Shown here in pieces: positions 6,001 to 64,000 of a stretch of DNA of 64,000 nt. Below the pieces are notes generated by a model. It saw only the letters and a program-made list of their open reading frames with translations. It did no database searches and was not told where the DNA came from. How positions within the stretch are numbered: the first letter of the stretch is position 1; every line of letters begins with the position of its first letter. The position numbers were made by a program, and so were the translations under genes. Origin of the DNA: Candidatus Levyibacteriota bacterium (GTDB lineage: Bacteria; Patescibacteriota; Microgenomatia; Levybacterales; UBA12049); NCBI GenBank assembly GCA_963716145.1, contig OY970292.1:533171-597170 (forward strand), given 5' to 3'.

Positions 6001-6072
6001 GCCGAGATAGCTCAGCGGTAGAGCAGCTGTTTTGTAAACAGCAGGTCCGGGGTCCGAATCCCCGTCTCGGCT
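6001..6072 (+). tRNA. tRNA-Thr (anticodon TGT)
   Basis: Cloverleaf folds by hand: acceptor gccgaga/tctcggc, D-stem gctc/gagc, anticodon stem gctgt/acagc with loop tttgtaa. T-loop reads tccgaat. Confidence 0.75.
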
Positions 6073-6170
6073 CTGTCTTCGTATAGCGAAGAACTTAGAA
6101 CAAAGAACTAAAAACAAAAAACGTTTTCTTAGTTCAAGGTTCATAGTTCTATGTTTTGCGTAGCAAACTA

Positions 6171-6254
6171 GCCAGATTCGCATAGCGGCAATTGCACCTC
6201 GCTGTAGACGAGGCGACCGTAAGGTCTACGGGGGTTCGAGTCCCTCATCTGGCA
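6171..6254 (+). tRNA. tRNA-Tyr (anticodon GTA), long variable arm
   Basis: Acceptor gccagat/atctggc, anticodon loop ctgtaga, 16-nt variable arm, T-loop ttcgagt. Confidence 0.75.
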
Positions 6255-6357
6255 CTCTATTCAGCTACGCTGAATACTAACGAACCAAGAACTGAAAACT
6301 CAGAAAGAAAATTTTCCTAGTCCTTGGTTTTTAGTTTTGAGTTCTGCTTTGCAGAAT

Positions 6358-6430
6358 GCCGAAGTGGCTCAGTGGTAGAGCAAGTCATTGGTAATGACTA
6401 GATCATGGGTTCCGATTCCCATCTTCGGCT
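6358..6430 (+). tRNA. tRNA-Thr (anticodon GGT)
   Basis: Acceptor gccgaag/cttcggc, anticodon stem agtca/tgact with loop ttggtaa. The T-loop appears to be 8 nt (ttccgatt). Confidence 0.7.
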
Positions 6431-8025: not shown

Positions 8026-8097
8026 AGGGACGTGGTGAAATGGTTATCACAGCAGTCTCCAAAACTGCTTTTCCCAGTTCGAGTCTGGGCGTCCCTG
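8026..8097 (+). tRNA. tRNA-Trp (anticodon CCA)
   Basis: Acceptor agggacg/cgtccct, D-stem gtga/tcac, anticodon loop ctccaaa, T-loop ttcgagt. Confidence 0.85.
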
Positions 8098-15201: not shown

Positions 15202-16038
15202 ATGAGTAGTGCAAAAGCATTCGCGCCTGCAAATATCAGCTGCGCTTTTAAGATTTATGAGCACAAAAATCCACGCTGGGCAGGCTCACTCGGATTTGGA
15301 TTTACTCTTAAAGAAGGAATAACTGTGGAAGTTACCAAATCAAAAACAAGCAAAGTTTTTTTTAATAAAAAGCAGGTCGATTTCCCGACAATAAGACAAG
15401 TTATAAATTCTTTGACAAAAGAGAAAATAGTTGTGAATCTAACTTCTCCCCTGCCTCTTGGCTGTGGGTTTGGCTTGAGCGGAGCAAGCGCGCTGGCAGC
15501 GTCTTACGCCTTAAATAAATTGTTGAAACTTGGTAAATCCAAAAAGCAGCTGGCTATTATTGCACACGTCGCGGAGGTTGAAAATAAAACCGGTTTGGGC
15601 GATGTAACAAATCAATATTACGGAGGTTTTTTGGTGAAATTCAAGCCCAGCTCACATTTTGAAGTTATCAAAATTCCGCTTAAGGATGTTCCAATTTTCT
15701 GCCTGAGCTTTGATAAACTACCTAATAACTCCATCCTTAACAATACAAGATTAACAGCTGATATAAATAGAGAAGCAGCAGTTGCATTGGGTAAAATGCA
15801 GGACTTGCTAAAATCAGGAGAGAAAGTGGAACTTGGATATATTATCAAGCTTTCAAAAGAATTTGCAATAAAATCAGGACTGCTTACAGATAAAAAAGTA
15901 ATTGAAACTATAGAGGCTATCGAAAAAGATAGTGGTCAGGCTTCAATGATAATGCTCGGAGATGCTGTATTCAGCAATATCAATTTCCCCGGCGCAAAGA
16001 GATTAACAATATCAGACCAGGGAGCGTATGTAATATAA
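15202..16038 (+). CDS. GHMP-family small-molecule kinase (candidate pantoate kinase)
   Basis: GHMP motif II PLGCGFGLSGASALAASYA and an N-terminal APANISCAF motif. 278 aa, overlapping the coaBC stop. Confidence 0.5.
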   Translation: MSSAKAFAPANISCAFKIYEHKNPRWAGSLGFGFTLKEGITVEVTKSKTSKVFFNKKQVDFPTIRQVINSLTKEKIVVNLTSPLPLGCGFGLSGASALAASYALNKLLKLGKSKKQLAIIAHVAEVENKTGLGDVTNQYYGGFLVKFKPSSHFEVIKIPLKDVPIFCLSFDKLPNNSILNNTRLTADINREAAVALGKMQDLLKSGEKVELGYIIKLSKEFAIKSGLLTDKKVIETIEAIEKDSGQASMIMLGDAVFSNINFPGAKRLTISDQGAYVI

Positions 16039-16064
16039 AAGCTTATCTATTCGTAAATATAATT

Positions 16065-16263
16065 TTGTGTGAGCATTCAAACAAGCGCGTTTACCCCGCT
16101 AAGCGGGGTTAAGAAATTGTGAATGAATTGTCAGGGGGAATCCGGCTCGAAGCTGAAAGCTGAGTGGCCGAAGGGGGCGGACAATCCCCCGACAATGAAT
16201 GAAACAATTTTAGCGCGACTTTGCAGCTCACAAGCTTTTGGTTCTTTTGTCGACACAAAAGAA
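16065..16263 (+). repeat. copy A of a conserved structured element (candidate small RNA)
   Basis: About 80% identity to 53549-53711 with two indels, and a compensated terminal hairpin (gttcttttgt-cgac-acaaaagaac). A TATAAT box sits at 16056-16061 just upstream. A long-range helix pairs ttgtcaggggg with cccccgacaa. Confidence 0.55.
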
Positions 16264-16293
16264 CAACCACAATCTGCTATAATCCATCTATTC

Positions 16294-17802
16294 ATGAAAC
16301 GGCAAATTTCAGCAACCATGGCCACGCAGCATCCTGACCATGCAGGTGTACCTTACTGGCATGACCGGGAATTCATAAGAACCAGTTACGAGTCGCACGA
16401 AACATTTGAGGCATTTTCTGAGCTTGGAATTCGCGAGTATAAATGGGACTGGGAGGGCAAACTTGTTGATGAATCGGTGCTTGAAAGATTGTTTGGGGAG
16501 CATTTTGAATTCTTTAAAAAAAACCCCTTGGGACAAAAAACATTTTTGACATTCAGACTCCCAAATCCCAAAGTCGAGACCGAATTCCGAATAGGTCGTG
16601 CTTTTATGAACCTAGCAAGTGCCGCAAGTGTCGCAAAGCATTTCGGGCTCCCTACTCCCCCGCTTTTTGAAGTGATTCTCCCCATGACCACATCAGCTGA
16701 GGAGATCTTTGAGATTCAAGTTGCCTATCAGCAAATTCACGCACTCACCCATCCTTTGTATCGCTTGAATAGTATTCTGACCAATCCCCGCATCATCCCA
16801 TTGTTTGAAGATGTTGAGACAATAATTAACTCTGACAAAATAATCGAAAAGTACATAAATCTTTATAAAAAACGGTTTAAAAAGACACCTCCATATATCC
16901 GCCCGTACGTTGCACGGAGTGATCCGGCTTTGAATTTCGGAATGGTACCTACAGTCTTTGCCATAAAAATTGCGCTATCAAGGTACGCAAAGTTGTCTAA
17001 GAAACTCAGGATTCCTTTTTATCCGATCATCGGAGCAGCTGTTCTTCCCTTCCGTGGAGGGATAGATCCAACGCGTATTGAGAAATTCGCTGATGAATAC
17101 AGAGGAATCCGCACAACCACAATTCAAAGTGCTTTCAGGTATGATTTTCCCAAAAAAGACGTTATAAAAGCCATAAAATATCTTGAAAAGACCCTCCCAC
17201 AACAAAAAGCGGAAATCATCCCAGCTAGCGAAGAAAATGAAATGATCAAGCTCATACCTTACTTTGAAAGTTCGTATCGCGAAACAATCGAAAAAATTGC
17301 ACCAGTAATAAATACTATTTCGGGTTTTTTACCCAGGCGCCGCGAAAGAGTCCAGCACATCGGACTTTTTGGATATTCAAGAGGAGTTGGTAAAGTAAAG
17401 CTACCGCGAGCAATTGGATTCACCGCAGCCCTTTATTCAATCGGCGTGCCTCCTGAATTCATAGGGACAGGAAGAGGCATAAAGCAAGCTAAAAAACTAG
17501 GTAAATTGGCAATCGTAAAAAAATATTATAAATATGTTTCAGAAGATCTGGATCAAGCAGGCAGATATCTAAATACTGATAATTTGAATAAACTGAGCAA
17601 GAAATCAAACGCTTGGAAAAAAGTATTGGAAGACATAAAGGCGGTCGAAGAAACATTGGGGATAAAACTCAGACCCATAACAAAAGAGGAAAAAGAACAC
17701 AAAAAACTTACTGATAAAATTTATGCGCAGCTGGATTCAGGAGACGTAATGCTCACCGAGCTAATCACCAAAGCCGCAATTCTCCGGAAAAGTTTGGGAT
17801 AA
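16294..17802 (+). CDS. archaeal-type phosphoenolpyruvate carboxylase (PepcA family)
   Basis: N-terminal MATQHPDHAG motif, GYSRGVGK (analogue of the classical GYSDSGK), and a C-terminal Gly. The start is moved to an in-frame ATG downstream of the repeat element; the track start at 16123 lies inside that element. Confidence 0.7.
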   Translation: MKRQISATMATQHPDHAGVPYWHDREFIRTSYESHETFEAFSELGIREYKWDWEGKLVDESVLERLFGEHFEFFKKNPLGQKTFLTFRLPNPKVETEFRIGRAFMNLASAASVAKHFGLPTPPLFEVILPMTTSAEEIFEIQVAYQQIHALTHPLYRLNSILTNPRIIPLFEDVETIINSDKIIEKYINLYKKRFKKTPPYIRPYVARSDPALNFGMVPTVFAIKIALSRYAKLSKKLRIPFYPIIGAAVLPFRGGIDPTRIEKFADEYRGIRTTTIQSAFRYDFPKKDVIKAIKYLEKTLPQQKAEIIPASEENEMIKLIPYFESSYRETIEKIAPVINTISGFLPRRRERVQHIGLFGYSRGVGKVKLPRAIGFTAALYSIGVPPEFIGTGRGIKQAKKLGKLAIVKKYYKYVSEDLDQAGRYLNTDNLNKLSKKSNAWKKVLEDIKAVEETLGIKLRPITKEEKEHKKLTDKIYAQLDSGDVMLTELITKAAILRKSLG

Positions 17803-36945: not shown

Positions 36946-37169
36946 ATACGACAGTTGCAGAATTTAAAAAAGAATTCCCGCTCTCTGTTAAAATCCACAA
37001 ATCTTCAGATGAGCAAGACGGATTGCTCAGCTGCGCTGATCTTAAATAATTCTGCGAAACCGCGTAGGCGGAAAAGCAGAACATCATTCGTATAAATGCT
37101 TTTTTCATTGATTTCCCGCTTTTTAAAATTTTGCTATACACCTAGCCTCAACAATCTGCATTGTGATAC

Positions 37170-37198
37170 TTGACATCTTATAGGGTATTTAATATACT
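37170..37198 (+). promoter_or_regulatory. near-consensus sigma70 promoter
   Basis: TTGACA, 17 nt, TATACT. Confidence 0.4.
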
Positions 37199-37750
37199 GT
37201 GTGGGATTCTTTGGAAGGTAAAGCTGAGAGTGCTTTTTTCGCGCTTTCACCCCAACCTTTTCCTGAAGAACGAAATCGGTAACTGAGATATGAAGGTCCA
37301 AACGCTGGACCAAATCATAACTCTTTTGCACTTTAAAAAACTAGGGATGTATTTTTTGCGTCCCGTAAGGATCATGAAATACTATGGACATCATCTATTA
37401 GCAGTTAAATGCTTTCAAATTTTTGTTGCGACCCATGCTCGCTTCTTCTCTTGTCCCGCGAAGCCTTTTGGCGAAGCGGGAAATCTCTCCGGTTATTTTC
37501 CTAAACTTTAAGCACTACTGTAATTTTGCTTATTTTTATAGGATAATTTATCGGAGAATTACATTCGGGATTGACATCCTACATTGGAGATAAATTATTT
37601 GTCTCCAGCGTTGGATGTCACATCCACCTAATTAGGGCAATTCTCACGGCGACCGCCGGCCCTAGCTTCCCCTAAAGGAGAGACTCGTCCTTACGACAAG
37701 GAGAGACTTTTTCGCAGGGAAAGTATGAGAGACAGACAAGGAGCAACACC

Positions 37751-38385
37751 ATGCAACGTCCATCCATCCGCCGAGGATTCGTGGCCGCTTTGGTCGCAAT
37801 TGGGATCGGTCTTACCACCGCCCCCGCCCCGGCGCTCGCCGACAACACCGACGTCAACGCCATCGTCGCCCAGGCCCGTGCCGACGCCACCACCCGTGTG
37901 GAAGCCGCTCTCGCAGCAGCCAACGCTCGTGTCGCAACCGTCGCCGCCCCGGCCCAGGCCGCCGACAACAACATCACGGCCACCCCGGCCAGCACCACCT
38001 CGGAGGCAACCGCCACCGAGTCCACCTACCAGGCACCCGCCGACACCGGCAACGCCAACAGCGGCACCGTCGAGGTCGCACCTGACCCCGTCGTCGCTTC
38101 GGCACCCGTCGTCGTCGAGGCAGCAGCTGTCGCTGTGGAGGCGCCGCCCCCGCCCCGGCCCTTGCCGTTTCGGCGCCTGTCGCACCCCTGGACTTCAACA
38201 TCCAGAACCCTGCCCAACCGGGGCAGAGGGTGCGCTTCGTGCGTTCCGAGGACGGGTCGTTCAGCGTGATCGCCACCAACAGGACCGGTTCGAACCAGTC
38301 CGCCCGCGTGTTCGCAGACCCCGTCTCGATCGGGATCGGCGTCCGCAACGGGAGCAAGAACTTCACCGGCGTCTTCAGCAGGTAG
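37751..38385 (+). pseudogene. high-GC (about 70%) Actinobacteria-like Ala/Pro-rich secreted protein gene, frameshifted
   Basis: AAGGAG ribosome-binding site 7 nt before the ATG. Signal peptide MQRPSIRRGFVAALVAIGIGLTTAPAPALA. GCC/GAC/ACC/GTC codon usage. The frame breaks in a C-run at about 38140-38165 and continues in another frame (DFNIQNPAQPGQRVRFVRSEDGSFSVIATN...) to the TAG at 38383-38385. Confidence 0.5.
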
Positions 38386-38958
38386 TCGCTTCACCAGGTG
38401 ATGCATCAAGGAAGGTTGACGGAATTTCTGTCTCAGGCCTCGGCTTGACTCAAGAGCTCGTCAGCTCCCCGCGATGCATCGCCTTTAGCTTTTAGCTTGC
38501 AAGGATGATCGTCCTCCTCCCTAGTTGGGAACTTTTTATGTGCCTAAAAAGCGCTAGTTCCCAACAGGGAGGGTGGATTCACTGATGTGGATTTTTCCTC
38601 GTAGAGGAGACATTTTCACATTTGTGATATTTTATTTTTTACGCGTTGCGGCTAAGCTGTTTCTGAGCAATTCGCGCTCCTTTTCACCGCTTACCGCGTA
38701 CCGTTACCCTATCCACCCTCCCTACTTCTATTTTGAGCCCCAATCAGACTTGGCGAAGCCTCGTTTGACGCGGGACTTAGAATAAAAGTATTTCATTATC
38801 TCAAAAATTACTCCTAAGCTCTGATTTATAACCACCATCTACTATCAGTACTTTGTTCCCGTTTGTAATTATTCTTATTTGCTTCTTAGCTGAAGATTTT
38901 TGACGTAGAAAAAACACCTTCATTGACATATAAGCTCCCCTATTTGTATAGTTAAATT

Positions 38959-39816
38959 GTGAGCAAAAAGTTTCTTCTAAACATTCTTACTGTTTCCATT
39001 TTATTTGTATCTGGTACCTTTTTGGTCTGGGCAGCAGCTAGCCCGAATGGGTGCGGAGGTAATGGCGGTACAGCCGGAGGCGTAGGCACCAAAGGATGCG
39101 ATAGCAGCTTCACAGGTTATAAAGGCGGCAACCCAGGCTCAGCAGGAGGAGGAAATGGGAATCCCGGTGGTAATGGATCTAATTTATCTGGGGATGCTGG
39201 TCAATATGGTGCTGGTGGGGGTGGGGGTGGAGGCGGAAGTGCTGGCGTTCGCGGTGGAAATGGAGGAATTGGTGGAAATTTTAATAACTTAGACGGTTTG
39301 GAGAGCGCTTCAGGCAACGGAGGACACGGAGGCTCGGGCGGTGCCTCTACTACCAATAGCGTCAGCGGTGGTGATGGTGGAACTGGAGGATTGGGAGGCA
39401 TTCTACAAAACGATAGCAACACCGGTAGCATAGGCGGAACGGGGGGTAATGGAGGGAAGGGAGGAGATACAGGCACAAGCGGGAGCGGAGCGGGTGTTGC
39501 CGGTGGTGCTGGAGGCGCCGGGGGAAATGGAGGAAATGTGTCAAAAGATACAGGGTTTGGTGTTACTACTTGGGGTAAGGGAGGAACTGGTGGCGTTGGG
39601 GGAAATGGAGGCGCTGGAGGCGATGCAAATGTGTCTGGGAACGGTGGTAATGGTGGTATAGGGGGAAAAGGAGGAAATGGTGGGAACGGAAAGACAAGTG
39701 GAGTTGGCTCCAACGGTGGGGTGGGGGGAAGTGGAGGAGATAGTTTTAGAGGGATTGGAGGAAACGGAGGAACCGGTGGAAATGGTGGCACTGGCTCAAC
39801 TGCAGGTACCCGGTAG
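38959..39816 (+). CDS. N-terminal segment of a giant surface protein: signal peptide plus Gly-rich (GGNGG/GGAGG) repeats
   Basis: TM or signal sequence MSKKFLLNILTVSILFVSGTFLVWA, then about 260 aa of GGxGG repeats. The Gly tract continues in other frames to about 40600. Confidence 0.5.
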   Translation: MSKKFLLNILTVSILFVSGTFLVWAAASPNGCGGNGGTAGGVGTKGCDSSFTGYKGGNPGSAGGGNGNPGGNGSNLSGDAGQYGAGGGGGGGGSAGVRGGNGGIGGNFNNLDGLESASGNGGHGGSGGASTTNSVSGGDGGTGGLGGILQNDSNTGSIGGTGGNGGKGGDTGTSGSGAGVAGGAGGAGGNGGNVSKDTGFGVTTWGKGGTGGVGGNGGAGGDANVSGNGGNGGIGGKGGNGGNGKTSGVGSNGGVGGSGGDSFRGIGGNGGTGGNGGTGSTAGTR

Positions 39817-40640
39817 CCCTGGCGGTGCCGGAGGAGAAGGTTGCGGTGGGCCCGGAGCAGTTGGTTCTCCCGCCTCAGGAAGTACCGGCGGTGCCGGAGG
39901 AGCTGGAGGACCAGTGTGTCTAAGCGGTGGTGCAGGTGGCACGGGTGGTATAAATGGCGGTGCCAGGAGGAGCTGGAGGACCAAAAAACGGCGCTGCCGG
40001 TGGCGCGGGTGGTACAGCCGGTGGAGGCGGTGGAGGCACGGGTCAACTTATAATTATGGGCGGAGGAGGTTCTACAAATTATGCTTATGGAGGAGGAGGT
40101 GGTGGAGGAGGCGCAGGGTACCAATGGTCTAGCTGGCGGTAAGGGTGGAAATGGTGGAGGTATGATAGTAGGTGGAGGAAGTTCTCTCAATTATATGGCA
40201 ACCGGGTCGGGTGGAGATGGAGGAGATGGAGGACATAATTCCAATGGTCCCGGTGGCAAAGGTGGAGACGGCGGGAGTGGTGGAGGTATAATAGGAGGTG
40301 GAGGAGGTTCTGTAAATCATGTATATCGTGGAGATGGGGGTAATGGCGGAAAAGGCGGGAACGGCACAGCCGGTCAGCCGGGTGGTGCTGGAGGAAATGG
40401 TGGATTTAGAAGTGGATACATTGTCGGCGGTGGAGGTAGCTCAAACTATTTTCATGTGGATGGAACTGATGGTGTAGGTGGTGCGGGAGGTGCTGGGTGC
40501 GGTGGCTTTGGTCAGCCTGCATCAGGCTCAACAGGTGGGGCTGGTGGCCCAGGATGCGAGGCGACCAACAGCAGCTTGCAGCAGCGGAAATGTCACCTGG
40601 AGTTGGACCGCCAGTACGAGTAGTCCCTCAACCCCAAATG
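39817..40640 (+). pseudogene. Gly-repeat region of the same gene, broken by at least 3 single-nt frameshifts
   Basis: Gly-rich translation hops between frames, for example ggtgccGgaggagct versus ggtgccAggaggagct at about 39965. The motif SPASGSTGGAGG(A)GGP(V)C recurs. Confidence 0.45.
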
Positions 40641-42265
40641 CACGACTTCAAGTTTTTGATAGCGCTGGAACAACTCTGTTATATGACAGTAACTCTGCTA
40701 TTGGTTCACCAAGAACCACCATTGGATTACCAGGAACTACCTTTAAAGGTCAAGTTAGCTACAACGGAACCAATCTTTACTCCGCACAAACCACTATTAC
40801 TTGCGCCGCAACACCAACATACTCCCTAACAGGCAGTATTTTTATCGATAGCAATGGAAATAATCTGAAAGATCCCGGAGAAAACCCTTACAATAGCTCC
40901 CAATTAAATGTCAGATTACGCAGTGGAGGCTCTACCTGGGATCAGGGCAACACTCCCGCTAACTATAATTATACCGGCCGTTCAGCCGGCGCGTATACCT
41001 TTGAGTTTTTATCGGCTATTCCGGCAGGATACACGCTGGGTCACCCCCCTGGTCCTCCATACCAGTATTCAGTTACTCTAGGTGCGGGATGCACGGCAAG
41101 CCCGCTGCCTCCCGGCAGTCCTGCCATCTGTGACGGATCAAATAACATAGTTGGTCTTAACTTTCCTCTTCAGGTTGTAGTCAGTCGTGTAACCACCACA
41201 ACTCTTTCTTCCTCACTCAATCCATCAACTGTCGGGCAAAATGTCACATTTACTTCAAATGTCAGTGGGGCTTGCGGGCCTACAGGAAATGTAGAATTTC
41301 TTGATGGGGCAGCAGTTATGGCAACAAGAGCATTGGCCGGAGCAACAGCCACATACTCAACTACCACCTTAACTGTCGGAAGTCACAATATTACGGCACG
41401 ATATACTGGCAATGCAGCTTGTGATCCAAGCACTTCCCCGGTTGTGGTCCAAACAATAAATCCCCCACCAAATCAAGCACCTACCATAAGCAACGCGACT
41501 ATTTCGCCCAAACCAATAACCGCAAATGGTTCAACACAATACGCAATAACCCTCACAGCAACCGACCCGAATGGCGGAAATGATATTGGAGCAGAATACA
41601 CAATCATCAACTATCAGGGCCCAAACGCAGGAGCTGGAAACTACCGAGGATATCTTGGATGGTCCACTCTGGGAGCTTCTCCGCCTCCTTATTCTTATCC
41701 CTACTGGACCTCTTCCATTTCTCCAAAACCCTGCGCGCCAGGTGGTGGCCAAGCGGCTGTCAATACCAGCGATGGCGCCACATGGGGACATCAATACATT
41801 AATTTGATAAGCTGTTCTACCGCAGTCGCGGGCAACATCAGGACAGTAACTTTTATTGTGACATTTAATAGTAACTTTACTGCGCCTACTAACAACAATA
41901 CTCTTTCCGGATATGTCCGGGATTGGGGAGGATTGGAAGATACTCCTATTATGAAACCATTTGACACGTTCAATTTGGCGCCGCCTGCAACTTACACAAT
42001 TTCAGGCAGTGTTTTTACTGATATAAGCGGAAATAAGATTAAAGATGGCAGTGAAATAGACTATCCAAGCTCTCCGGGCATAACAAAAAGCCCTGCCGGC
42101 GGAACTGTTACCAATAATGCAAACGGAACTTATAGCATTACTGGATTGTCTGCCGGAACTTACACTGTCTCCTATGGATCTGTCCCCGCAGGATACAATA
42201 TTGTTCATCCCCAAACAGGTCCGCCTCCCCAATTCTCAGTTACGGTTGGCCCGGATGCAGCGTGA
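40560..42265 (+). CDS. central part of the giant surface protein: SdrD-B / Cna-B-like and bacterial Ig-like (Big_3-like) domains
   Basis: Two SGS(I/V)F(I/T)D.NGN.IKD.GE motifs. Ig-like pattern TTTLSSSLNPSTVGQNVTFTSNVSG...GSHNITARYTGNAACDPSTS. The frame ends at the TGA at 42263. Confidence 0.55.
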
Positions 42266-43215
42266 ACCCCACTCCCCCAACAGCGGCCATAGCCTGTGAT
42301 GCTTCGCAAAACATTTCCGGCCTTAACTTCGCGATCAGTAATTCGTCTCCTTGGATACAGGGCTATGACTTGGATATGCGCTTTGATTATGGCTTTAATG
42401 ATGCTATCCCAGGCGGGACTCCATATACTCCCTACGCCTCAGTATTTGACACTTTTAGCAATACTCCTGGAGTTATTTTTTCAGGAGATAGCTCTTACAG
42501 CTTTGGATCGGGCCAAGCATCAATTACTAGGAGTGTTGTTGGGGGCACAACCTATCCTGAAGTTTTTAACTTCCCATCAGGCAACCCTCTGCACACAAGT
42601 TATGGATACTTATCAGGCAATGCCGCGAGTGCCGGAATAACTCCCAGAGATATGGCAGGAAATGATACTTCGGGAAATTCGGTCTGCAGCGGCGGCGGCA
42701 TTGGTAATTGCACTATCCATCCGAATTTACTAAAAGGTGTTTACGGCGCAAATGGAAATGTAAAAATAAACACATCTTCTCTAAAGGCTGCCAGCAATTA
42801 TATTTTCCTCATAAACGGAACTCTAACTATAAATGGAAATATAACTATTCCTACAACCTCAACAGCTCTTTTTACATCAAGCAGCAACATCATAATTGAC
42901 AAGTCCGTTGGAGCAGCAAGTAATTCATTCCCCCGTCCCACGGGACAATTGCAGGGATTCTATAGCGCTGACAATTCTTTTACTATCCAGGGAAACAATA
43001 ATTGCTCTCTCGGAATTGATAAAATGTTAAACATTGAAGGTTCTGTAGTTGTGAATGCCAACGGCACGGGAGGATCTGTTGTGAATCAGCGCAATCTTTG
43101 CGGTGATAATGCCACTATTCCTTCTCTTACGATCGCTCCCCGTCTTGATTTTATTCTCAATGCTCCATCATTTCTGATGGTACCTGATGTTATCTCCAAT
43201 GAAGTCGCACCATAG
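42262..43215 (+). CDS. C-terminal part of the giant surface protein (beta-helix-like repeats)
   Basis: Starts by repeating the PxxPxAAIACDxSxNIxGLNF motif seen upstream. Separated from the previous segment by a -1 frame shift. Confidence 0.45.
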   Translation: MNPTPPTAAIACDASQNISGLNFAISNSSPWIQGYDLDMRFDYGFNDAIPGGTPYTPYASVFDTFSNTPGVIFSGDSSYSFGSGQASITRSVVGGTTYPEVFNFPSGNPLHTSYGYLSGNAASAGITPRDMAGNDTSGNSVCSGGGIGNCTIHPNLLKGVYGANGNVKINTSSLKAASNYIFLINGTLTINGNITIPTTSTALFTSSSNIIIDKSVGAASNSFPRPTGQLQGFYSADNSFTIQGNNNCSLGIDKMLNIEGSVVVNANGTGGSVVNQRNLCGDNATIPSLTIAPRLDFILNAPSFLMVPDVISNEVAP

Positions 43216-51251: not shown

Positions 51252-53525
51252 ATGCCTGACTTGCCCACAGACAAAGACAATAAGGCAGTAGATACTGCTT
51301 TCTCCTATCCTTTTCTGAAAAGGTTTTCCAAAAAAACTCTTATTCTTATTGCGGGCTTCTTAATTCTAATTGTTATGGTAATACTTGGAGTTCTTTTATC
51401 AAAGGATTCATCTGACCAAGCCAAGCAAGCGCAAATTGATGAGCAAAACGCCAAGCTTGAAAATATAAAAAAACAAACAAATCTGCCCTCCTCCAAAGAA
51501 TCAACCAGTACAATTGTCTATGGCGCATGGACCGGCCAACAATCAGTAATAAAATCTGTTGATCTGTTATCCGGAAAATCGGTATCGATTGCTGCACTCC
51601 CGATAAATATTAAAAAAGTAAGTATCCTTTCACCAAAACAATTTGTCTATATTGACCAAACCAACGCCCAGGATCATGGAAAACAGATTGTACGCTTTGG
51701 GATAAAAGAAAAAACCTCAGAAGTTATAATTGTCTCAGATGAAGGATATGGAATTGATGATTATGTTATTTCTCCCAATAAAAGGTACATGGCTGTGTGG
51801 GAAATAGCGCTTGCACCATCATCACAAATACTTTTTGGCGGACGATCACGCGTATACGCAGTGGATCTTTTAAATCCCACCAGTAAACACCTCATATATA
51901 ATGAACTTGCCACAAGCCCGATTCACTATCCAAGAGCAATTCTCAACAATGGAAGACTCTTTACCGATAAATTTCTACCCAATGACCCAAATGGTGGAGC
52001 GGGCTGGTCATACGGAATGGGCGTTTCTGATTTTGAAGGGAAGGATAAGAAAGATCTTTCTCAAATGGAAAACGGTACATATGGTACCCAGCCTTCTATT
52101 TCCTCAAATGGAAAATTCCTTGTATTTGCAGGTTACGATGGAACTCTGGGAGATGGAAAAGCCGCAAAAGACGGTTACCGCCAAGCGATATTAAAGCCAA
52201 ACACAGTTGAACTGCTTGATACGGATACTCTCGAAAGGACAAAATTGCCAAATCTTCCCAATACCAGTACATATATCAGCGCGGACTGGGACAACATCAC
52301 AGGAAATATTCTCCTGACAATTATTCCGACAGACCCTGAAAAAACAGGTCTTTACTTTTATGACCTAACATCTCACAACACAAAGCAGATTAATATCCCT
52401 GGAAACGATCAAGCCACATACTCTTACGTTTCCACGCTATCAAACGGCAAATTTCTTATTGGAAAAGCGGATGAATCTGCCTCCAGCCTGGGAAACTTGG
52501 GAGACGGATATGCTCCATCTCTGAGTCAGCTTTTCAGCTTTGATCCCTCCGCCAATACCGCCGGAGAAATACCGATTGATAATATCTTTGTGCAGTACAT
52601 AACCACTCTTCCCCAAAACTATTTTGCAAATGTTCTAGGATTTACAGCCTACGCGGCGGCAACAACGCCGATTCCCCAACCAACATTTATTGATTTGTAT
52701 TCAGACAAAAACGCAACCAAGCAAAACCTCCAGCTTTACACTTTCCTCTTCAAACAGGATCTTACTCAAACAAGAGAAACTCAGCAGAGTACTCCTGTAG
52801 CCACGCCCACACCTACATCTGCGCCCACAATCCCTCCTCGCGGGGATGCTCCAACACGAGAGCCTTTTAAATTTCCCGAAACAATAAATTGCTGGGATCT
52901 AGCCCAGGCGCAGTGCCACACCACCAAACGCAACACCTGCGTAAAGAATGCTAGAATAAAGCTAAAAGAGCAGGGGAAATGCAACCAGTCCCCTCTTTAT
53001 CTTTACGGACAAGCCGGACAACAGGTGAAAGTTGTGATTCAAACTCCGGTACAAAATGCTATCCCCTCCTACGGAAATGGCTACGATGTGACTATTCAAG
53101 ATGCAGGTAAAATGGAAATAAAAGGACAAATTTACAATGCCATAACTTATGATTATAAATCAAACTTAAGGAGAGTCGCGGCGCCTAGGACAGGAACTAT
53201 TTCCAAATTATCAGAGGTGAGTAAAGTGCTTCAGGAGTATGCGAAAAAGCTGGGATTAAACGAGAAAGAAACAGCTGATCTAGTAAATTCCGCTAAACAA
53301 AAACTGGCCAGCCCATATATACTTATCTCCTTTTACGATCAGGCAACATCTGAGCAAATCCTTCCCTTATCGTTCTATCCGGAACCTGATAATTATCTAA
53401 ATGTTGTCTTTTACTTCAAAGAGCTTGATGAAAAACCAAACTACACCCCTATTCCGCCGGTTTTCCCGGCTCTGCTAAACCGCACCGGCCTCACAGCCGT
53501 TGAGGTGAGTGAGATTGTGGAATAA
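51252..53525 (+). CDS. large membrane-anchored / secreted hypothetical protein with beta-propeller-like repeats
   Basis: N-terminal TM anchor and TolB-like repeat patterns. 757 aa. Confidence 0.4.
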   Translation: MPDLPTDKDNKAVDTAFSYPFLKRFSKKTLILIAGFLILIVMVILGVLLSKDSSDQAKQAQIDEQNAKLENIKKQTNLPSSKESTSTIVYGAWTGQQSVIKSVDLLSGKSVSIAALPINIKKVSILSPKQFVYIDQTNAQDHGKQIVRFGIKEKTSEVIIVSDEGYGIDDYVISPNKRYMAVWEIALAPSSQILFGGRSRVYAVDLLNPTSKHLIYNELATSPIHYPRAILNNGRLFTDKFLPNDPNGGAGWSYGMGVSDFEGKDKKDLSQMENGTYGTQPSISSNGKFLVFAGYDGTLGDGKAAKDGYRQAILKPNTVELLDTDTLERTKLPNLPNTSTYISADWDNITGNILLTIIPTDPEKTGLYFYDLTSHNTKQINIPGNDQATYSYVSTLSNGKFLIGKADESASSLGNLGDGYAPSLSQLFSFDPSANTAGEIPIDNIFVQYITTLPQNYFANVLGFTAYAAATTPIPQPTFIDLYSDKNATKQNLQLYTFLFKQDLTQTRETQQSTPVATPTPTSAPTIPPRGDAPTREPFKFPETINCWDLAQAQCHTTKRNTCVKNARIKLKEQGKCNQSPLYLYGQAGQQVKVVIQTPVQNAIPSYGNGYDVTIQDAGKMEIKGQIYNAITYDYKSNLRRVAAPRTGTISKLSEVSKVLQEYAKKLGLNEKETADLVNSAKQKLASPYILISFYDQATSEQILPLSFYPEPDNYLNVVFYFKELDEKPNYTPIPPVFPALLNRTGLTAVEVSEIVE

Positions 53526-53548
53526 AAATATTTCTCTTCTTACGTTCT

Positions 53549-53711
53549 ATTGTGAGCATTCAAACAAAGCGCGTAAAGAAATTGTGAAATGAGTTGTCAG
53601 GGGGAAACTGGCCGAATGAGCCGAGGGGGTGTTATCACCCGACAACGAATGAACAATTTTAGCGTGACTTTGCGCGAACGAGTTTTTGGTTCTTTTGTCG
53701 GCACAAAAGAA
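53549..53711 (+). repeat. copy B of the conserved structured element
   Basis: Aligns to 16065-16263 with two deletions, the same long-range helix and terminal hairpin (ttcttttgt-cggc-acaaaagaa). Sits at the left boundary of a GC-richer segment. Confidence 0.55.
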
Positions 53712-54046
53712 TGAAGAAAAGTATTTTCCCCAATCTATCAATTAAAATTGGTAAATTAAAGAAAACAGGCATACAAGGACAAAAGGGTCTCCAACGGGAG
53801 GACAAACGGCGTAAAAACGCAGAAAAGTACTCGATCCGGGGGAGGATCACTCAATTGTAAAAAGACGGGAGACCGCCAAGTCCTTGTTTCCCACCGCTTG
53901 TGGTGAGTAAGTTTCCATGATGGAACGCCCTTCTTTCAAAGCTTAGAAAGCTATATCCACCTTGGGAGTCAGAAGTTCACTACACTTCCATATGAGCGTC
54001 CGATCGACACTCGACTCCCACCTCACTACTTCATTCTCAGAAGTAG

Positions 54047-54355
54047 CTATTCAGTTTTGGGCTTCGGCCTCCTCCAGAATGTCATGCTCTCGTCAAACGG
54101 CCGAGTGAGACCGTCAGAAGCTGTGGTGACGTGAGCGCGAGCGGGATCGTGCGCAAACTCCACCTTGGAGACCTGCAGGAGGTCTTCCCCGACTTTGACG
54201 TAGTCTTCTGCCTGGGCATCTTTAAGATCAACCTGGACCATTCCATACATCTGAATCATTCCTCTCGTAGTCTGGTATGCGTAGTACCCTACCTGGGAGT
54301 CCGAGAACTCATGTCTCGACAGATATGGCGACTCCCGCCGCGAATGTAACTGCAC
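54047..54355 (-). CDS. hypothetical protein (GC-rich island)
   Basis: 102-aa ORF, co-directional with and contiguous to two other small minus-strand ORFs. Confidence 0.3.
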   Translation of the reverse strand: MQLHSRRESPYLSRHEFSDSQVGYYAYQTTRGMIQMYGMVQVDLKDAQAEDYVKVGEDLLQVSKVEFAHDPARAHVTTASDGLTRPFDESMTFWRRPKPKTE

Positions 54356-54381
54356 CAGGAACCCACGATGGGGCTACCTAG

Positions 54382-54609
54382 TTAAAGCCAGGGCGGATAT
54401 ACTTCCACTATTAAGATGAAGCTTGTGGAGTCGTCTCGCCTGTAGCAGGACGTTTTCTCCGACAGTGTGAGTTGCCCGGAACAGGTGGTGACGATGGTTT
54501 CTCCACCGCTTCGATCTATCGATGTGACCTTTTCGAGCCAGCCACCGCCGACTGCGATGTAGTCACCCTTCTGGCACTCGGTCCAGGGAATAGGTTGTAG
54601 AACCAACAT
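54382..54609 (-). CDS. hypothetical protein (GC-rich island)
   Basis: 75-aa ORF. Confidence 0.3.
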   Translation of the reverse strand: MLVLQPIPWTECQKGDYIAVGGGWLEKVTSIDRSGGETIVTTCSGQLTLSEKTSCYRRDDSTSFILIVEVYPPWL

Positions 54610-54636
54610 TGCTGCTTCTCCTCTCTCAGCGCGGAT

Positions 54637-54852
54637 CTACCGCTTCGGGTGGCACTGCGGGCATCGCCCGTCATGCCATATTTTGTGTTGACGACACTTG
54701 TACAGAGGGTTCTTCTTCGTTACCACTTTGGCCGTGCGCGTCCTTTCAGACGACGGCGTTGTAGAAACAGAGGCTTGCCGAGCCTTTTCTGCGGCTGCTT
54801 TTAGAGCTGCCGCTGATGGCCTCTGGTTTTTACGAGCATTCCTGTCAGGCAT
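54637..54852 (-). CDS. small basic protein with C-terminal zinc ribbon (CRQH...CPQC)
   Basis: 71-aa ORF. GGAGG ribosome-binding site upstream. Confidence 0.35.
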   Translation of the reverse strand: MPDRNARKNQRPSAAALKAAAEKARQASVSTTPSSERTRTAKVVTKKNPLYKCRQHKIWHDGRCPQCHPKR

Positions 54853-54873
54853 CTGTACGTTTCCTCCGTTTCG

Positions 54874-54999
54874 TTATGCAAGGACAAAGACGACCAGCAC
54901 CACGACCACTACGATCGCAGCGATTATGAGCAAGATGGCCCGCATGAGCCACTTGGGCACCTCTGCAAAACCCATCTCGTCAGGATCAGAAATGAACAT
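54874..54999 (-). CDS. 41-aa single-TM peptide (holin-like)
   Basis: Not in the track (under 60 aa). MFISDPDEMGFAEVPKWLMRAILLIIAAIVVVVVLVVFVLA. AAGGGGG ribosome-binding site. Directly precedes the zinc-ribbon gene on the minus strand. Confidence 0.3.
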   Translation of the reverse strand: MFISDPDEMGFAEVPKWLMRAILLIIAAIVVVVVLVVFVLA

Positions 55000-55555
55000 T
55001 TTCACCCCCTTTCCGAGGCTAGTAGATTGCCGAACTACATCCGGCTCCTACCTTCACTTGTTTTCCCCGCAGCCTACGAATAGGTACACAAAGTATCCAA
55101 AGCCGAGGCATAGAAGGACCACGATGGTTACCGCGATCCCTTGCATTACTGCTGTTCCAATCACTGTGCTCACCTCCTCTCTTTCCCAATCTGGGATTCC
55201 AGGGGGCAAATTTTGCCCGCTCGAAACCCAAATTGGGAATTTGAAGAGAATAAATTTCTAAGCTAAAATCTTGTATGCCTTGTTAAAGAACATCTGCTTA
55301 CTAAATTACGGTATAGCAAAACAGATTTTGCAGCAAAAGATAAAATTCAGACCGCATTTGGCCTCAATTTTTCCTGTTTGCAAGAGTGGAGTCTAGCAGA
55401 AAAAGCAGTTTTTATCAATACTATGAGGCGCAAATTGACCTAACTATTTGAGCTTTGTGAGCGTAGTATAAAAAGCAGTTGAGGTAAGTAAGATTGTTGA
55501 GTAAAGCTTTCCTGGCGTCTTAGCTATTTTTGAGACTGGGGAATTAATGGTCTGC

Positions 55556-61364: not shown

Positions 61365-61894
61365 ATCAAAAGGTAAATAAAGATATCAACAAATCTTATT
61401 CTATAAACCAGAAATATAAAAGATTAAATCCGCAAATAATCCGCTTTTAATTCTCCTCATCTGTCTTATTGATTTTTACAGTAAAGGTTCTTTGTTTGAT
61501 AATATAAAATTTTAATTTTAATAAAAATTAAATTCCTCAAATTTACAATCTTTTGTGAAAAAACGGTTGTGAAAAATAGAAAAAACACGGCATTTTTTCA
61601 TCAAAAATCCCAAACGTATTTGCCTGATTCTTATTATTAATTACTTCACAGGGGCAAAATTTGAATAATTGAGGCTAAAATACGTGAAAATAATTGAAAA
61701 CATAATGTGAACAAAAAATCAATTTATGTCTTGACAAACTTATTAATATATGTAGTAATTAATATATAGACAAAGTTGGACATCAAAGTTGGACTAGTAC
61801 AACTTTACAAAGAGCTAAGAACAGTGAACAAATAATTAAGATTTTCTCAGCTTTAAGTTCAAAATTTTAAGTATTTTAAAAATTCCTGCCCATT

Positions 61895-64000
61895 ATGACT
61901 ACCGATAAAAAGAAAGTAAAAAATTCTAAAGAGATAGTTGAGAAAGAGACGATGCCACTTGCGAGTAAATCATCTGATTCCTCTTTCAAAAAAAAGACTG
62001 ATAAAAATAAACAACGAGAGACTTCCCAAAAGGAAAACGCACAAGAGGCAGTTACGTTTACTATCCAGCAGGCCGCAGATCAATTGGGACTTTCCACCAA
62101 AACCCTCAGGCGCTGGGAAGAAAAAGGGATCATAAAAGCTCAAAGAACAGCGGGAAATCAGAGACGCTATACCTTATTGGACGTTGAAAGATTACAACCA
62201 AGAGTAAAAAAACTCTCTTCTCAACAATTTTCAAACATAGCTGAAATCCGAAACCCAAATAGCCAATTGTATCTAGAAAGCTCTTTTTCAAATGAATCTA
62301 ATCCAATAAACTCTAATGTAGAAAGAGTTAATTCACCTCCATTCAGTAAAAACACGACACGGCGTACTTTTGGTGCTGACCCAAAGGTTGGTACTAATAA
62401 TAGTTATGTCCAAGTTTCAAGAGTTGGACAAGATGATAATGTCCAAGATTTGAAAATTTCGCATAAGAGTAAGTTCAAACAAAGTACGGCACTTCTTGGG
62501 GTATTCGCAATCGTAATAATCAGCATGATTTTTTTATCCTCCCCCCACATCGCGGGAGAAACGAACAGGAGAATATTTTCTGTCCTGATTGGCAGTCTCA
62601 ATAAAGAACAGGGCGATTACCAATCAAATGTGCTATCTCCTGGAGTTCTCTCGGATACTATAAAGCTCAAAGGAATGAAGGGAGAGATAAGTTTTAACAT
62701 CCCCGCGATCTTCAATAGCAACTTAAGAGTAAACGGAGACACACTTCTCAATGGCAATGCAACAGTCTCAGGAACATTGACTGCTCCAAATATAGTTTAT
62801 AGTGTCATACCAGGTCAAAATATATCAATTTCCGGTGATCCCCAGAATCCGACAATCTCTACAGGCCCAATTGTCACCTCCTTTGCCGGCAAAACAGGAG
62901 ATCTTAAGCTGTCTGCGGGAACCGGAATAAATGTAAGTGATCTTGAAATAAGTATGAAAAATACTTCTCTGACTGTCGAGGCGGGAAGTGGCCTTTCCGG
63001 CGGAGGAAAAGTTGAGCTTGGCGGCTCAATATCGCTTGAGAATGCTGGTGTTATTTCATTGGCAGGGACGGCAAATCAAGTTCTTGTTTCGGTATCAACA
63101 GGAGACGTAACTCTTTCGCTTCCACAGGATATTGATTTGAGCTCATCCCCTACTTTTTCCAGTATTAATCTGACCAGCAATACTAATCAACTGGTTCTGG
63201 GAAGTGGCAATACCGGGACACTTACTCTCGGCACACTTACAGCAGATCGGACTTATACTTTACCAGATCTTAATGCATCAAATGACACTATTTGTTTGGC
63301 TGCTCTAGCCAATTGTTCAGGCGGGTCAGGAGGTATTGGAGGCGCGGGCACAATCAATCGGGTAGCAAAGTTCACTGCTTCCAATTTGATTGGCAACTCA
63401 AGCATAAACGACCTTGGCTCAGCAGTCGCAATGACTATAGATGCATCAGGCAACGTGGGGATTGGCACCACTACACCAACATCCTTTAAACTCGAAGTCG
63501 CAGGCAATGTAGGTCCTGAAGCTGATAACACCAGGGACTTGGGATCAGCAAGCAAAAGATGGGCAAATATTTATGGTACAAATGTCATCGCAAGCAATCT
63601 AAGTGGTGCAATCACTCCAACCGGCTTTACTCCAGGTTCCGTAGTGTTCGCAGGCTCAGGTGGTACTCTGACGCAGGACAATGCCAACTTCTTCTGGGAT
63701 GATACTAATAACAGGCTTGGGATAGGAATAACCACTCCGACCTCATCGCTGGTTGTCCAGGGTATTACTGGTAATTCCACAGCTGAATTTATAACAACTG
63801 AAAATGCCAATAGAAGACTTGTTGAGATCAGAAATTATAGCAATGGTACGGCGGGGGCGACCCGGCTGGGCATAATTAACGATGCTGGGACCGGCATGGA
63901 CATTACAGCATATGGAAGTGGCAATACCGGAACTTTTGCAGGCCTTTCTCTTGCCAACACGGTTCGTGTCAGTTCTAGTACTGCCCTTGTTCTTTATGCC
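61895..64000 (+). CDS. membrane-anchored MerR-type HTH protein with extracellular tail-fibre-like repeats (3' partial, runs off the window)
   Basis: Not in the track because there is no stop in the window. The frame is open for more than 700 codons. N-terminal MerR HTH (FTIQQAADQLGLSTKTLRRWEEKGIIKAQRTAGNQRRYTLLDVERL). TM ALLGVFAIVIISMIFL. Then repeated GNVGIGTTTPTS...L.V.G motifs. Confidence 0.55.
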   Translation, partial: MTTDKKKVKNSKEIVEKETMPLASKSSDSSFKKKTDKNKQRETSQKENAQEAVTFTIQQAADQLGLSTKTLRRWEEKGIIKAQRTAGNQRRYTLLDVERLQPRVKKLSSQQFSNIAEIRNPNSQLYLESSFSNESNPINSNVERVNSPPFSKNTTRRTFGADPKVGTNNSYVQVSRVGQDDNVQDLKISHKSKFKQSTALLGVFAIVIISMIFLSSPHIAGETNRRIFSVLIGSLNKEQGDYQSNVLSPGVLSDTIKLKGMKGEISFNIPAIFNSNLRVNGDTLLNGNATVSGTLTAPNIVYSVIPGQNISISGDPQNPTISTGPIVTSFAGKTGDLKLSAGTGINVSDLEISMKNTSLTVEAGSGLSGGGKVELGGSISLENAGVISLAGTANQVLVSVSTGDVTLSLPQDIDLSSSPTFSSINLTSNTNQLVLGSGNTGTLTLGTLTADRTYTLPDLNASNDTICLAALANCSGGSGGIGGAGTINRVAKFTASNLIGNSSINDLGSAVAMTIDASGNVGIGTTTPTSFKLEVAGNVGPEADNTRDLGSASKRWANIYGTNVIASNLSGAITPTGFTPGSVVFAGSGGTLTQDNANFFWDDTNNRLGIGITTPTSSLVVQGITGNSTAEFITTENANRRLVEIRNYSNGTAGATRLGIINDAGTGMDITAYGSGNTGTFAGLSLANTVRVSSSTALVLYA

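Follow-up and report, generated by a model that had tools for sequence, protein, structure and literature searches.

A structured non-coding element of approximately 170-210 nt occurs twice, as copies A and B, in the 64,000-nt stretch of DNA from Candidatus Levyibacteriota bacterium analyzed here (contig OY970292.1 of assembly GCA_963716145.1, positions 533,171 to 597,170; hereafter, the window). Both copies are members of an interspersed repeat family that is found throughout the Levybacteria of the candidate phyla radiation (CPR), is defined by its fold, and consists of discrete units that multiply and are kept intact. The original prediction, made from the letters of the window, had taken the two copies for a candidate novel small RNA (sRNA) encoded at two loci; each proved instead to be one of hundreds of copies that are dispersed on both strands of Levybacteria genomes.

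Both copies lie on the + strand at the places where they were first noticed, and their extents became slightly wider (Table 1) when they were delimited with the covariance model R1, which was built from 57 type-1 copies. Copy A scored 119.9 bits (E = 3.9e-23) and copy B 142.1 bits (E = 8.9e-28) against R1, and the window holds these two copies only, the next match reaching 15.8 bits. The column identity of A and B in a pairwise MAFFT alignment was 81%. All five blocks quoted as identical in the original prediction were found in both copies, and AACAATTTTAGCGNGACTTTGC occurred exactly twice in the window, with 0 occurrences expected by chance. The folding energies were -80.5 kcal/mol for copy A (z = -5.4 against dinucleotide shuffles) and -53.0 kcal/mol for copy B (z = -3.8), and no shuffle equaled either copy. 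The terminal hairpin was present in both, with a CGAC loop in A and a CGGC loop in B. The two extra hairpins described for copy A were also real; one is the mini-hairpin CCCCGCTAAGCGGGG, which is missing in copy B, and the other is an AGCT-GAA-AGCT insertion at approximately 16151-16161. One detail had to be corrected, since the long-range helix of copy B, which had been thought to be maintained with a G-U change, contains a G·A mismatch (GGGGG/CACCC).

Pattern and covariance-model searches brought the family to well over 200 copies in approximately 45 Levybacteria genomes and in metagenomes; the copies are phylogenetically related, and these numbers are not counts of independent events. When a genome collection was scanned on both strands with an apex pattern derived from three divergent copies, 108 stretches were obtained, 106 of them from Levybacteria-like metagenome-assembled genomes (MAGs) and two of them chance matches. 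R1 then found 109 + 20 copies in the fetched loci (given here with L numbers), some of which the apex pattern had missed. The invariance of the apex in this set is a product of the search pattern. A metagenome scan that was anchored in the basal rod and left the apex free gave at least 120 stretches, in which R1 found 112 copies. The number of copies sampled per genome was 2-8, up to 8 coming from one MAG. The distribution of R1 scores was bimodal, with intact copies at 70 bits or more, the next scores at approximately 33 bits, and almost none between. Collections of viral contigs, phage records, and plasmid records were also scanned and contained no match to the family.

The element consists of a rod of 130-165 nt and a separate AU-rich hairpin on its 3' side. 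The rod is closed by helix P1 and contains conserved asymmetric internal loops (CAAAG/CGA and GUUAAG/UAG), two tandem sheared G·A motifs (GA-NN-GA opposite GA-NN-GA, with covarying Watson-Crick pairs between them), and a G-rich apex. Two kinds of basal arms were distinguished, type 1 (GCGAGCATTGAAACAAAG...) and type 2 (CGCCAATTCG.AGTTGAATGCATGA...), and the apex and the 3' hairpin are common to both. RNAalifold analysis of the 57 copies predicted 36 pairs, 26 of which showed compensatory changes. By pair counting in the genome-collection sample, 93.9% of the cells were paired compared with 76.1% in shuffles, and double-change cells numbered 386 compared with 126; the covariation score was 0.49 compared with 0.17 in shuffles and fell to 0.09 or less when the partners were slid by 1-3 columns. 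In the independent metagenome sample with the unconstrained apex (alignment A6, which was fitted to the covariance model), 94.8% of the cells were paired compared with 76.5% in shuffles, and the covariation score was 0.461 compared with 0.146. Although P1 lies outside the model, it also covaried, with a mean duplex energy of -9.6 kcal/mol for native partners compared with -6.3 ± 0.4 kcal/mol for shuffled ones, and its sequences are diverse (UGUGAGC/GCUCACA, UCUUGCA/UGCAAGG, and CUCGCCC/GGGCGAG). One P3 pair was AU in 26, UA in 21, GC in 4, and CG in 4 copies across the family, and one P5 pair (alignment columns 67/181) was GC in 74, AU in 21, and GU in 2 copies of the apex-unconstrained sample. 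The 3' hairpin has 10-16 bp, all of which covary, and the flanking UUUU and A-rich tail extend the pairing. Among ten close pairs of copies, 11 changes at paired positions were compensatory, 35 affected one side only and left the pairing possible, and 29 were disruptive, a pattern that is better than the neutral expectation, but not overwhelmingly so.

These results bear out the first description of the element as non-coding, conserved, and strongly structured, and add covariation support to it. That description had named many divergent copies lacking structural conservation as the mark of a plain repeat; the many divergent copies do exist, but the structure has not been lost among them.

In 54 of the 57 copies, the + strand was more stable than its complement, the mean difference being 7.4 kcal/mol (Wilcoxon p = 1e-10), and G-U pairs outnumbered A-C oppositions at predicted pairs by approximately 81 to 21. 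The folding strand is thus the purine-rich one, the + strand of the window, and the functional form is single-stranded. The strand data fit RNA and single-stranded DNA equally well.

Copies within the same genome could be 91-100% identical, and the homology ended at the ends of the element, beyond which the flanks were unrelated. Flank alignments of eight near-identical same-genome pairs revealed neither terminal inverted repeats (TIRs) nor target-site duplications (TSDs), and no target motif was recognizable in them. At one tRNA-gene locus, an orthologous site was filled in L197 and empty in L052, and mosaic copies were also seen, for example in CALRDJ. Copy A has a positional ortholog in L112 that is 86% identical to it, compared with 42% identity in the upstream flank and 32% at four-fold degenerate sites of the adjacent gene; the two copies differ by, among others, a G-C to A-U exchange in helix P2b. 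Clustering of the 584 open reading frames (ORFs) within ±3.5 kb of approximately 110 copies gave no protein family at more than 5 loci, those at 5 loci being housekeeping, and no transposase, reverse transcriptase, or recombinase was enriched. No match to the HUH Y1 motif was obtained in approximately 0.86 Mb around the copies with a crude, low-sensitivity regular expression. Since TIRs, TSDs, and an adjacent protein gene are all lacking, the copying agent may act in trans.

In the apex, three segments change together, namely purine run 1 (5'-GGGGGA), a pyrimidine run (UCNCCC or UCCCCC), and purine run 2 (5'-AGGGGG), and their lengths are matched (3/3/3, 4/4/4, or 5/5/5). The layers formed by these segments were analyzed in the basal-anchored, apex-unconstrained set only; they are numbered from the bottom of helix P5 and written in the order run 1, pyrimidine, run 2. 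At layer 5, 67 copies had (G,C,G), 15 had (A,U,A), 5 had (A,U,U), and 4 were exceptions, and layer 6 was (A,U,A) in 70 of 91 copies. The coordinated change was seen in at least four or five apex classes, and compensated variants also occurred outside the search pattern. The inner apical hairpin was hypervariable and had been swapped between otherwise near-identical copies. The covariation of the layers agrees with isosteric exchange in an antiparallel purine-motif triplex (G·G-C, A·A-U, and U·A-U) and constitutes a triplex signature. The chain topology is compatible with such a structure, in which run 1 would go up, followed by the inner hairpin, run 2 going down, a loop of 5-7 nt, and the pyrimidine strand going down. 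The apex, with its purine:pyrimidine helix of 5-6 bp and its mirror purine run, probably forms a six-layer R·R-Y triple helix. In the commonest apex class, the varying base of run 2 could alternatively pair with a U at the foot of the inner hairpin, and for this reason we infer the triplex, with good support, rather than regard it as demonstrated. Two other structures were rejected. A switch between P5 and a hairpin of run 2 with the pyrimidine run does not account for the 5'-most base of run 2, which tracks the top pair of P5, yet would face an invariant C in that hairpin. A G-quadruplex does not fit because the pattern is kept in variants with only three Gs per run. To our knowledge, no natural RNA has a contiguous six-layer purine-motif triplex; the long RNA triplexes known so far, such as those of the MALAT1 ENE, telomerase RNA, and the SAM-II riboswitch, belong to the U·A-U type.

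The elements were always intergenic and occurred in both orientations. In a context survey that was based on crude ORF calls, the hairpin end lay directly against a convergent gene's stop codon in 70 of 102 cases, and convergent gene pairs accounted for 28 of 91 classified contexts; with co-directional neighbors, the folding strand was antisense in 36 cases and sense in 16. When the upstream gene was co-directional, the element started a median of approximately 44 nt past its stop codon (to the estimated position of P1), and when it was divergent, the median gap was approximately 147 nt. Copy B starts approximately 23 nt past the stop codon of a 757-aa ORF (51252-53525) without a Pfam match. 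Copy A is preceded, as had been noted, by a TATAAT box that is well placed as a -10 element and is possibly its own promoter; the ortholog in L112 has TATATT at the same place. A -10-like hexamer was found just 5' of P1 in 32-41% of the copies, compared with 12-19% in a control window, an approximately two-fold enrichment, and this hexamer lies outside the duplicated unit. Visual inspection of both strands of the consensus revealed no recognizable internal sigma-70 promoter. UUUU stands before the AU-rich 3' hairpin and an A-rich tail after it, and neither the hairpin nor the rod leads into a U-tract. The interpretation as an sRNA is weakened by the sharp edges of the duplicated units, by an upstream -10-like hexamer in only about one third of them, and by the lack of a U-tract. 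Canonical hairpin-plus-U terminators were not enriched in the window (19 compared with 16.1 expected), so that transcripts could be ended by some other means. A role of the family hairpin as a general terminator was rejected, as it occurs in the window only at A and B and, in the 0.86 Mb, is almost always attached to a rod.

Copy A sits between a GHMP-kinase gene (15202-16038) and a gene for an archaeal-type phosphoenolpyruvate carboxylase, pepcA (ATG at 16297), whose product matches Pfam PEPcase_2 (4.6e-141) and whose homologs come from Levybacteria/Levyibacteriota MAGs. A CoaBC gene and the GHMP-family kinase, which resembles archaeal-type pantoate kinase, are neighbors of pepcA. An archaeal host, to which the carboxylase and this kinase could have pointed, was rejected on the basis of the PepcA homologs and of the genome scan, both of which indicated CPR Levybacteria. 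The extended -10 promoter TGCTATAAT lies 7-13 nt before the pepcA ATG in the window, L001, L002, L112, and L113, with no Shine-Dalgarno sequence (window 16275-16299, L001 3975-4005, L112 2476-2503, and L113 2463-2480), and the pepcA mRNA accordingly appears from the sequence to be leaderless or near-leaderless. In the sampled upstream regions of the window, L001, L112, and L113, this promoter is directly beyond the hairpin. The spacer upstream of pepcA varies from 83 nt in one relative to 484 nt in L112, which has a head-to-head pair of a type-2 and a type-1 element, the latter corresponding to copy A in both its place and its direction; in L114, an orphan hairpin is all that is present, and L001 and L113 have other combinations. 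In L114 (2353-2500), the TGCTATAAT box is approximately 150 nt upstream of the annotated pepcA start, and two GC-rich hairpins, CCGCCAGCTGGCGG and GGAGGGGTTATACCTCC, lie in the interval, which may represent another kind of leader or a short ORF ahead of the gene.

As to function, we consider it quite possible, although short of an even chance, that the element serves as RNA-level punctuation in cis between transcription units, in the manner of REP/ERIC/BOX repeats. The element would be made as RNA either from a chance upstream -10 box, as copy A could be, or by read-through from an upstream gene, as copy B could be; this RNA would act in cis between transcription units by blocking, ending, or stabilizing transcripts. 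Selection on the fold keeps the copies intact. We favor punctuation because the placement is strictly intergenic and biased to gene ends, because promoters lie directly beyond the hairpin at the pepcA loci examined, and because ordinary terminators are lacking in this genome, and because a copy has been retained at one locus over a long time. Several observations weigh against it. The duplicated unit has no promoter, and most copies have no good -10 box; classical intrinsic termination is not expected without a U-tract after the rod or the hairpin; and read-through cannot explain the excess of antisense placements (36 compared with 16) beside co-directional genes. Furthermore, the elaborate conserved loops and the apex seem too specific for a mere transcript barrier. 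Purine-motif triple helices form readily in DNA and poorly in all-RNA systems in vitro, which would favor a single-stranded DNA form.

The main alternative, which we regard as less likely, is selfish, non-autonomous mobile DNA without a host function. The folded single-stranded DNA, or an RNA intermediate, would be recognized by an enzyme encoded in trans, such as an HUH-type or hairpin-specific transposase, a recombinase, or a reverse transcriptase, and the structure would be conserved for mobility only. The sharp edges and the high identity of same-genome copies, with neither TIRs nor TSDs, are as in mobility of the IS200/IS605, IS110, or recombinase type. Filled and empty sites exist, the pepcA locus shows turnover in the type and orientation of its elements, copies have recombined into mosaics, contigs often break at elements, and no promoter lies within the unit. 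Identity can still be 92% between copies at non-orthologous loci, such as copy B and a copy in another species (L025), even though the synonymous sites of the species are saturated. G·T wobbles, tandem G·A pairs, and purine-motif triplexes are, moreover, all comfortable in DNA. However, no enzyme gene of the required kind accompanies the copies in the surroundings searched, with the crude HUH search included, and the second end-hairpin of IS200/IS605 derivatives is missing. Almost no decayed copies exist between the intact ones and the background of R1 scores, one copy has been kept at the same place and in the same orientation across saturated synonymous divergence, and the viral, phage, and plasmid collections contained no match.

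Each copy could also be a gene of its own for a trans-acting "sibling" sRNA, or for a protein sponge or ribonucleoprotein scaffold, with the conserved apex and the G·A loops as the presumed binding sites for a protein or a target; this appears unlikely. The correctly placed -10 boxes of copy A and its ortholog and the two-fold enrichment upstream of P1 speak for it, as does an apex that forms a module common to both types of basal arms, and protein binding is typically associated with tandem G·A motifs and conserved loops. Since the folding strand frequently runs antisense to the neighboring genes, it would need transcription of its own. On the other hand, approximately 60-65% of the copies have no recognizable -10 box and none has a U-tract terminator, unrelated hairpins can take the place of the apex while the basal rod stays the same (L025 1234-1400, L062 5693-5843, and L113), and head-to-head pairs come as near as 8-11 nt, which leaves no room for separate promoters. 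Most improbable is a cis-regulatory leader, riboswitch, or operator palindrome for the downstream pepcA. A family-type hairpin does precede TGCTATAAT by 7-11 nt (56 nt in L002) in every sampled upstream region, even in L114, where the rod is absent. However, the element is located upstream of the promoter of a near-leaderless gene and not in a 5' untranslated region, copy B and more than 200 others have unrelated neighbors in either orientation, and the hairpin sequence varies with compensation, unlike a protein operator. Regulation of pepcA is thus essentially excluded.

A further proposal, which we offer tentatively, is that the family represents a CPR-specific class of structured element whose business end is a six-layer purine-motif (G·G-C/A·A-U) triplex on a G·A-rich rod. 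If so, the triplex would be recognized either by the copying machinery, perhaps acting through single-stranded DNA or an RNA intermediate, or by a host factor that binds RNA. A triplex of this kind would then be seen in nature for the first time, and the element would be a mobile element defined by its fold and not by terminal repeats. CPR genomes are approximately 1 Mb in size, with almost no described non-coding RNA biology and few recognizable terminators or regulators, so that a fold-conserved element in many copies is a sizeable and unexplained investment for them. By extrapolation from two copies per 64 kb to the contig of 1.14 Mb, the family could reach tens of copies and approximately 0.5% of the DNA. 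It supplies a covariation-rich alignment for a new Rfam-type family, a testable prediction of a natural purine-motif triple helix, and a handle on the delimitation of transcription units or the movement of DNA in organisms that are not yet culturable alone.

Several variants were seen among the copies. Rods with a quite different apex and without G-runs, but with the same 3' hairpin and related basal arms, occurred at L025 1234-1400, L062 5693-5843, L113 2290-2454, L001 3720-3925, and L002 3750-3930; the superfamily is thus wider than the G-rich-apex family modeled here. A mini-hairpin, CCC(C)GC-UNA-GCGGG(G), was found at two sites, namely the GUUAAG/UAG loop (window 16094-16108, L005, L032, and L098) and the inner apical hairpin (L004, L041, and L093), and behaves like a portable sub-module. 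Head-to-head pairs of elements recurred, often as a type-2 element on the minus strand facing a type-1 element on the plus strand, with the 5' ends 8-83 nt apart (L010 4410-4775, L081 7591-7992, L112 2065-2484, L032 338-770, L064 5167-5604, and L008 981-1388), and the spacer was sometimes an AT-rich palindrome, for example AATATTAATATT. Many of the element-bearing MAG records are titled Gammaproteobacteria, Saccharimonadales, Eisenbacteria, Limnocylindrales, Lysobacterales, or Bacteroidia (L005, L013, L015, L019, L020, L063, L080, L081, L098, and others). These titles are probably wrong, since the GC content of approximately 40%, the element, and the PepcA relatives look like those of Levybacteria.

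The positions of the parts of both copies and of the adjacent promoter-like signals are listed in Table 1.

Table 1 Parts of copies A and B and neighboring promoter-like signals in the window.
Feature	Position	Strand	Remarks
TATAAT, -10-like hexamer	16058-16063	+	Outside the repeated unit; ends 4-5 nt before P1 of copy A
Copy A, full element (rod and 3' hairpin)	16065-16271	+	Covariance model R1; type-1 basal arms, "GGGGGCGGACAATCCCCC" apex
P1 5' strand, TGTGAGC	16068-16074	+	Pairs with GCTCACA 16226-16232, closing the rod
Optional mini-hairpin, CCCCGC-TAA-GCGGGG (CCCCGCTAAGCGGGG)	16094-16108	+	Inside the conserved GUUAAG/UAG internal loop
5' strands of P3 (AAATTGT), tandem G·A region (GAATGAAT), and P4 (TTGTC), then bulged A	16113-16133	+	Partner strands 16191-16210
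Purine run 1, GGGGGA	16134-16139	+	Watson-Crick pairs with TCCCCC 16185-16190 (helix P5)
Variable inner apical hairpin	16140-16170	+	Includes the GCT-GAA-AGC insertion flanked by G·A pairs
Purine run 2, AAGGGGG	16171-16177	+	Mirror of run 1; proposed third strand on P5
Pyrimidine run, TCCCCC	16185-16190	+	P5 3' strand
Copy A 3' module, TTTTGG then GTTCTTTTGT-CGAC-ACAAAAGAAC	16236-16264	+	AU-rich hairpin
TGCTATAAT, extended -10 promoter of pepcA	16275-16283	+	Neighbor, outside the element
Copy B, full element	53548-53719	+	Covariance model R1; type-1 basal arms, "GGGGGTGTTATCACCC" apex
Copy B apex	53600-53640	+	Run 1 GGGGGA 53600-53605, inner hairpin, run 2 (GA)GGGGG to 53629
Copy B apex, 3' part: loop TGTTA, then TCACCC	TCACCC 53635-53640	+	
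Copy B 3' module, TTTTGG then TTCTTTTGT-CGGC-ACAAAAGAA	53684-53711	+	

Other features of the window were also recorded. Four tRNA genes are located at 6001-6430 and 8026-8097, and the tRNA at 6171-6254 has a long variable arm. In a block at 37000-42300, the GC content rises to 0.58 and the GC skew to +0.44 in a genome of approximately 40% GC; it contains several overlapping ORFs without a Pfam match and a 595-aa Ig-like/SdrD-type surface protein (40478-42262), and might be of foreign origin or reflect a repeat protein of odd composition. The segment at 53740-55300, directly 3' of copy B, has a GC content of up to 0.54, no credible Rfam match, and three ORFs without a Pfam match (54047-54355 and 54382-54606 on the - strand and 54698-55261 on the + strand); it may have been inserted, with one of its edges falling at copy B. 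Finally, 1.9 kb at 61365-63252 has no ORF of at least 70 aa, a GC content of 0.31-0.41, and no Rfam match at E <= 1, and is unusually long non-coding DNA for a genome of 1.1 Mb.

In the comparison with known families, an Rfam search of the whole window at the gathering threshold returned only four tRNAs, that of 15900-16400 at E <= 10 returned 0 matches, and that of 53500-55400 at E <= 1 returned only a spurious miRNA match (55174-55248) outside copy B. The element is absent from Rfam. Signal recognition particle (SRP) RNA, known ribozymes, riboswitches, and HEARO/omega-type RNAs were rejected, as none matched at gathering or permissive thresholds; the loose resemblance to domain IV of SRP RNA that had been suggested for copy A was not borne out even at E <= 10. 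A classical stand-alone sRNA gene was set aside because there is no intrinsic terminator with a GC-rich hairpin and a U-tract, a riboswitch or cis-regulatory leader because the neighboring genes are unrelated and the orientation is mixed, and an integron attC array because of the scatter of the copies over both strands and the lack of any integrase enrichment around them. No description of the family was found in the full-text literature searched. The family is apparently undescribed and akin in kind to the structured intergenic repeats of bacteria; its architecture and the triple-helix signature set it apart from all the classes with which it was compared.

Small, non-coding, and multi-copy, with discrete edges and presence/absence polymorphism, the element belongs to the miniature inverted-repeat transposable elements (MITEs) or interspersed repeats in the broad sense. 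A DDE-derived MITE was rejected, as neither TIRs nor TSDs flank the eight near-identical same-genome pairs. The element shares with the IS200/IS605-derived palindrome-associated transposable elements (PATEs), and with others that are mobile as folded single-stranded DNA, the lack of TIRs and TSDs, strand-specific hairpins, and the presumed reliance on a trans-acting enzyme. However, PATEs have similar small hairpins at both ends and a target tetranucleotide, whereas the element has one small hairpin at its 3' end only, and no TnpA-like motif was found near the copies with a crude regular expression; this assignment was also rejected. The apex resembles H-DNA mirror repeats, R·R-Y triplexes, and the major-groove purine triples of the tRNA core in that a mirror purine tract is combined with a complementary pyrimidine tract, and its covariation obeys the isosteric rules of R·R-Y triplexes (G·G-C to A·A-U or U·A-U and the reverse).

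Like REP and BIME sequences, the element is a structured extragenic repeat at the 3' ends of genes, with strand-specific structure and no TSDs, and roles in mRNA stabilization and termination have been proposed for those sequences. REPs are, however, palindromes of 20-40 nt with a GTAG head, in contrast to the rod of the element; with this difference in architecture, and with no RAYT/HUH motif near the copies in the low-sensitivity search of 0.86 Mb, membership was rejected. The element also resembles the ERIC, BOX, RUP, and Correia elements, which are likewise non-coding imperfect palindromes of 100-200 nt, strictly intergenic in either orientation, present in many copies per genome, modular in build, and often found at gene ends with long RNA stem-loops. 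Being intergenic, present in both orientations, modular, and built on a stable conserved stem-loop, the element, which is presumably transcribed, belongs to the ERIC/BOX-like class as a functional class and not by homology. It has no sequence or Rfam relation to these repeats of enterobacteria, pneumococci, and Neisseria, its hosts belong to a CPR phylum, and its ends are without TIRs or TSDs, unlike those of Correia and RUP elements. Beyond what these repeats offer, the element has a separate 3' hairpin, elaborate conserved loops, a triple-helix signature, and very strong covariation across species.

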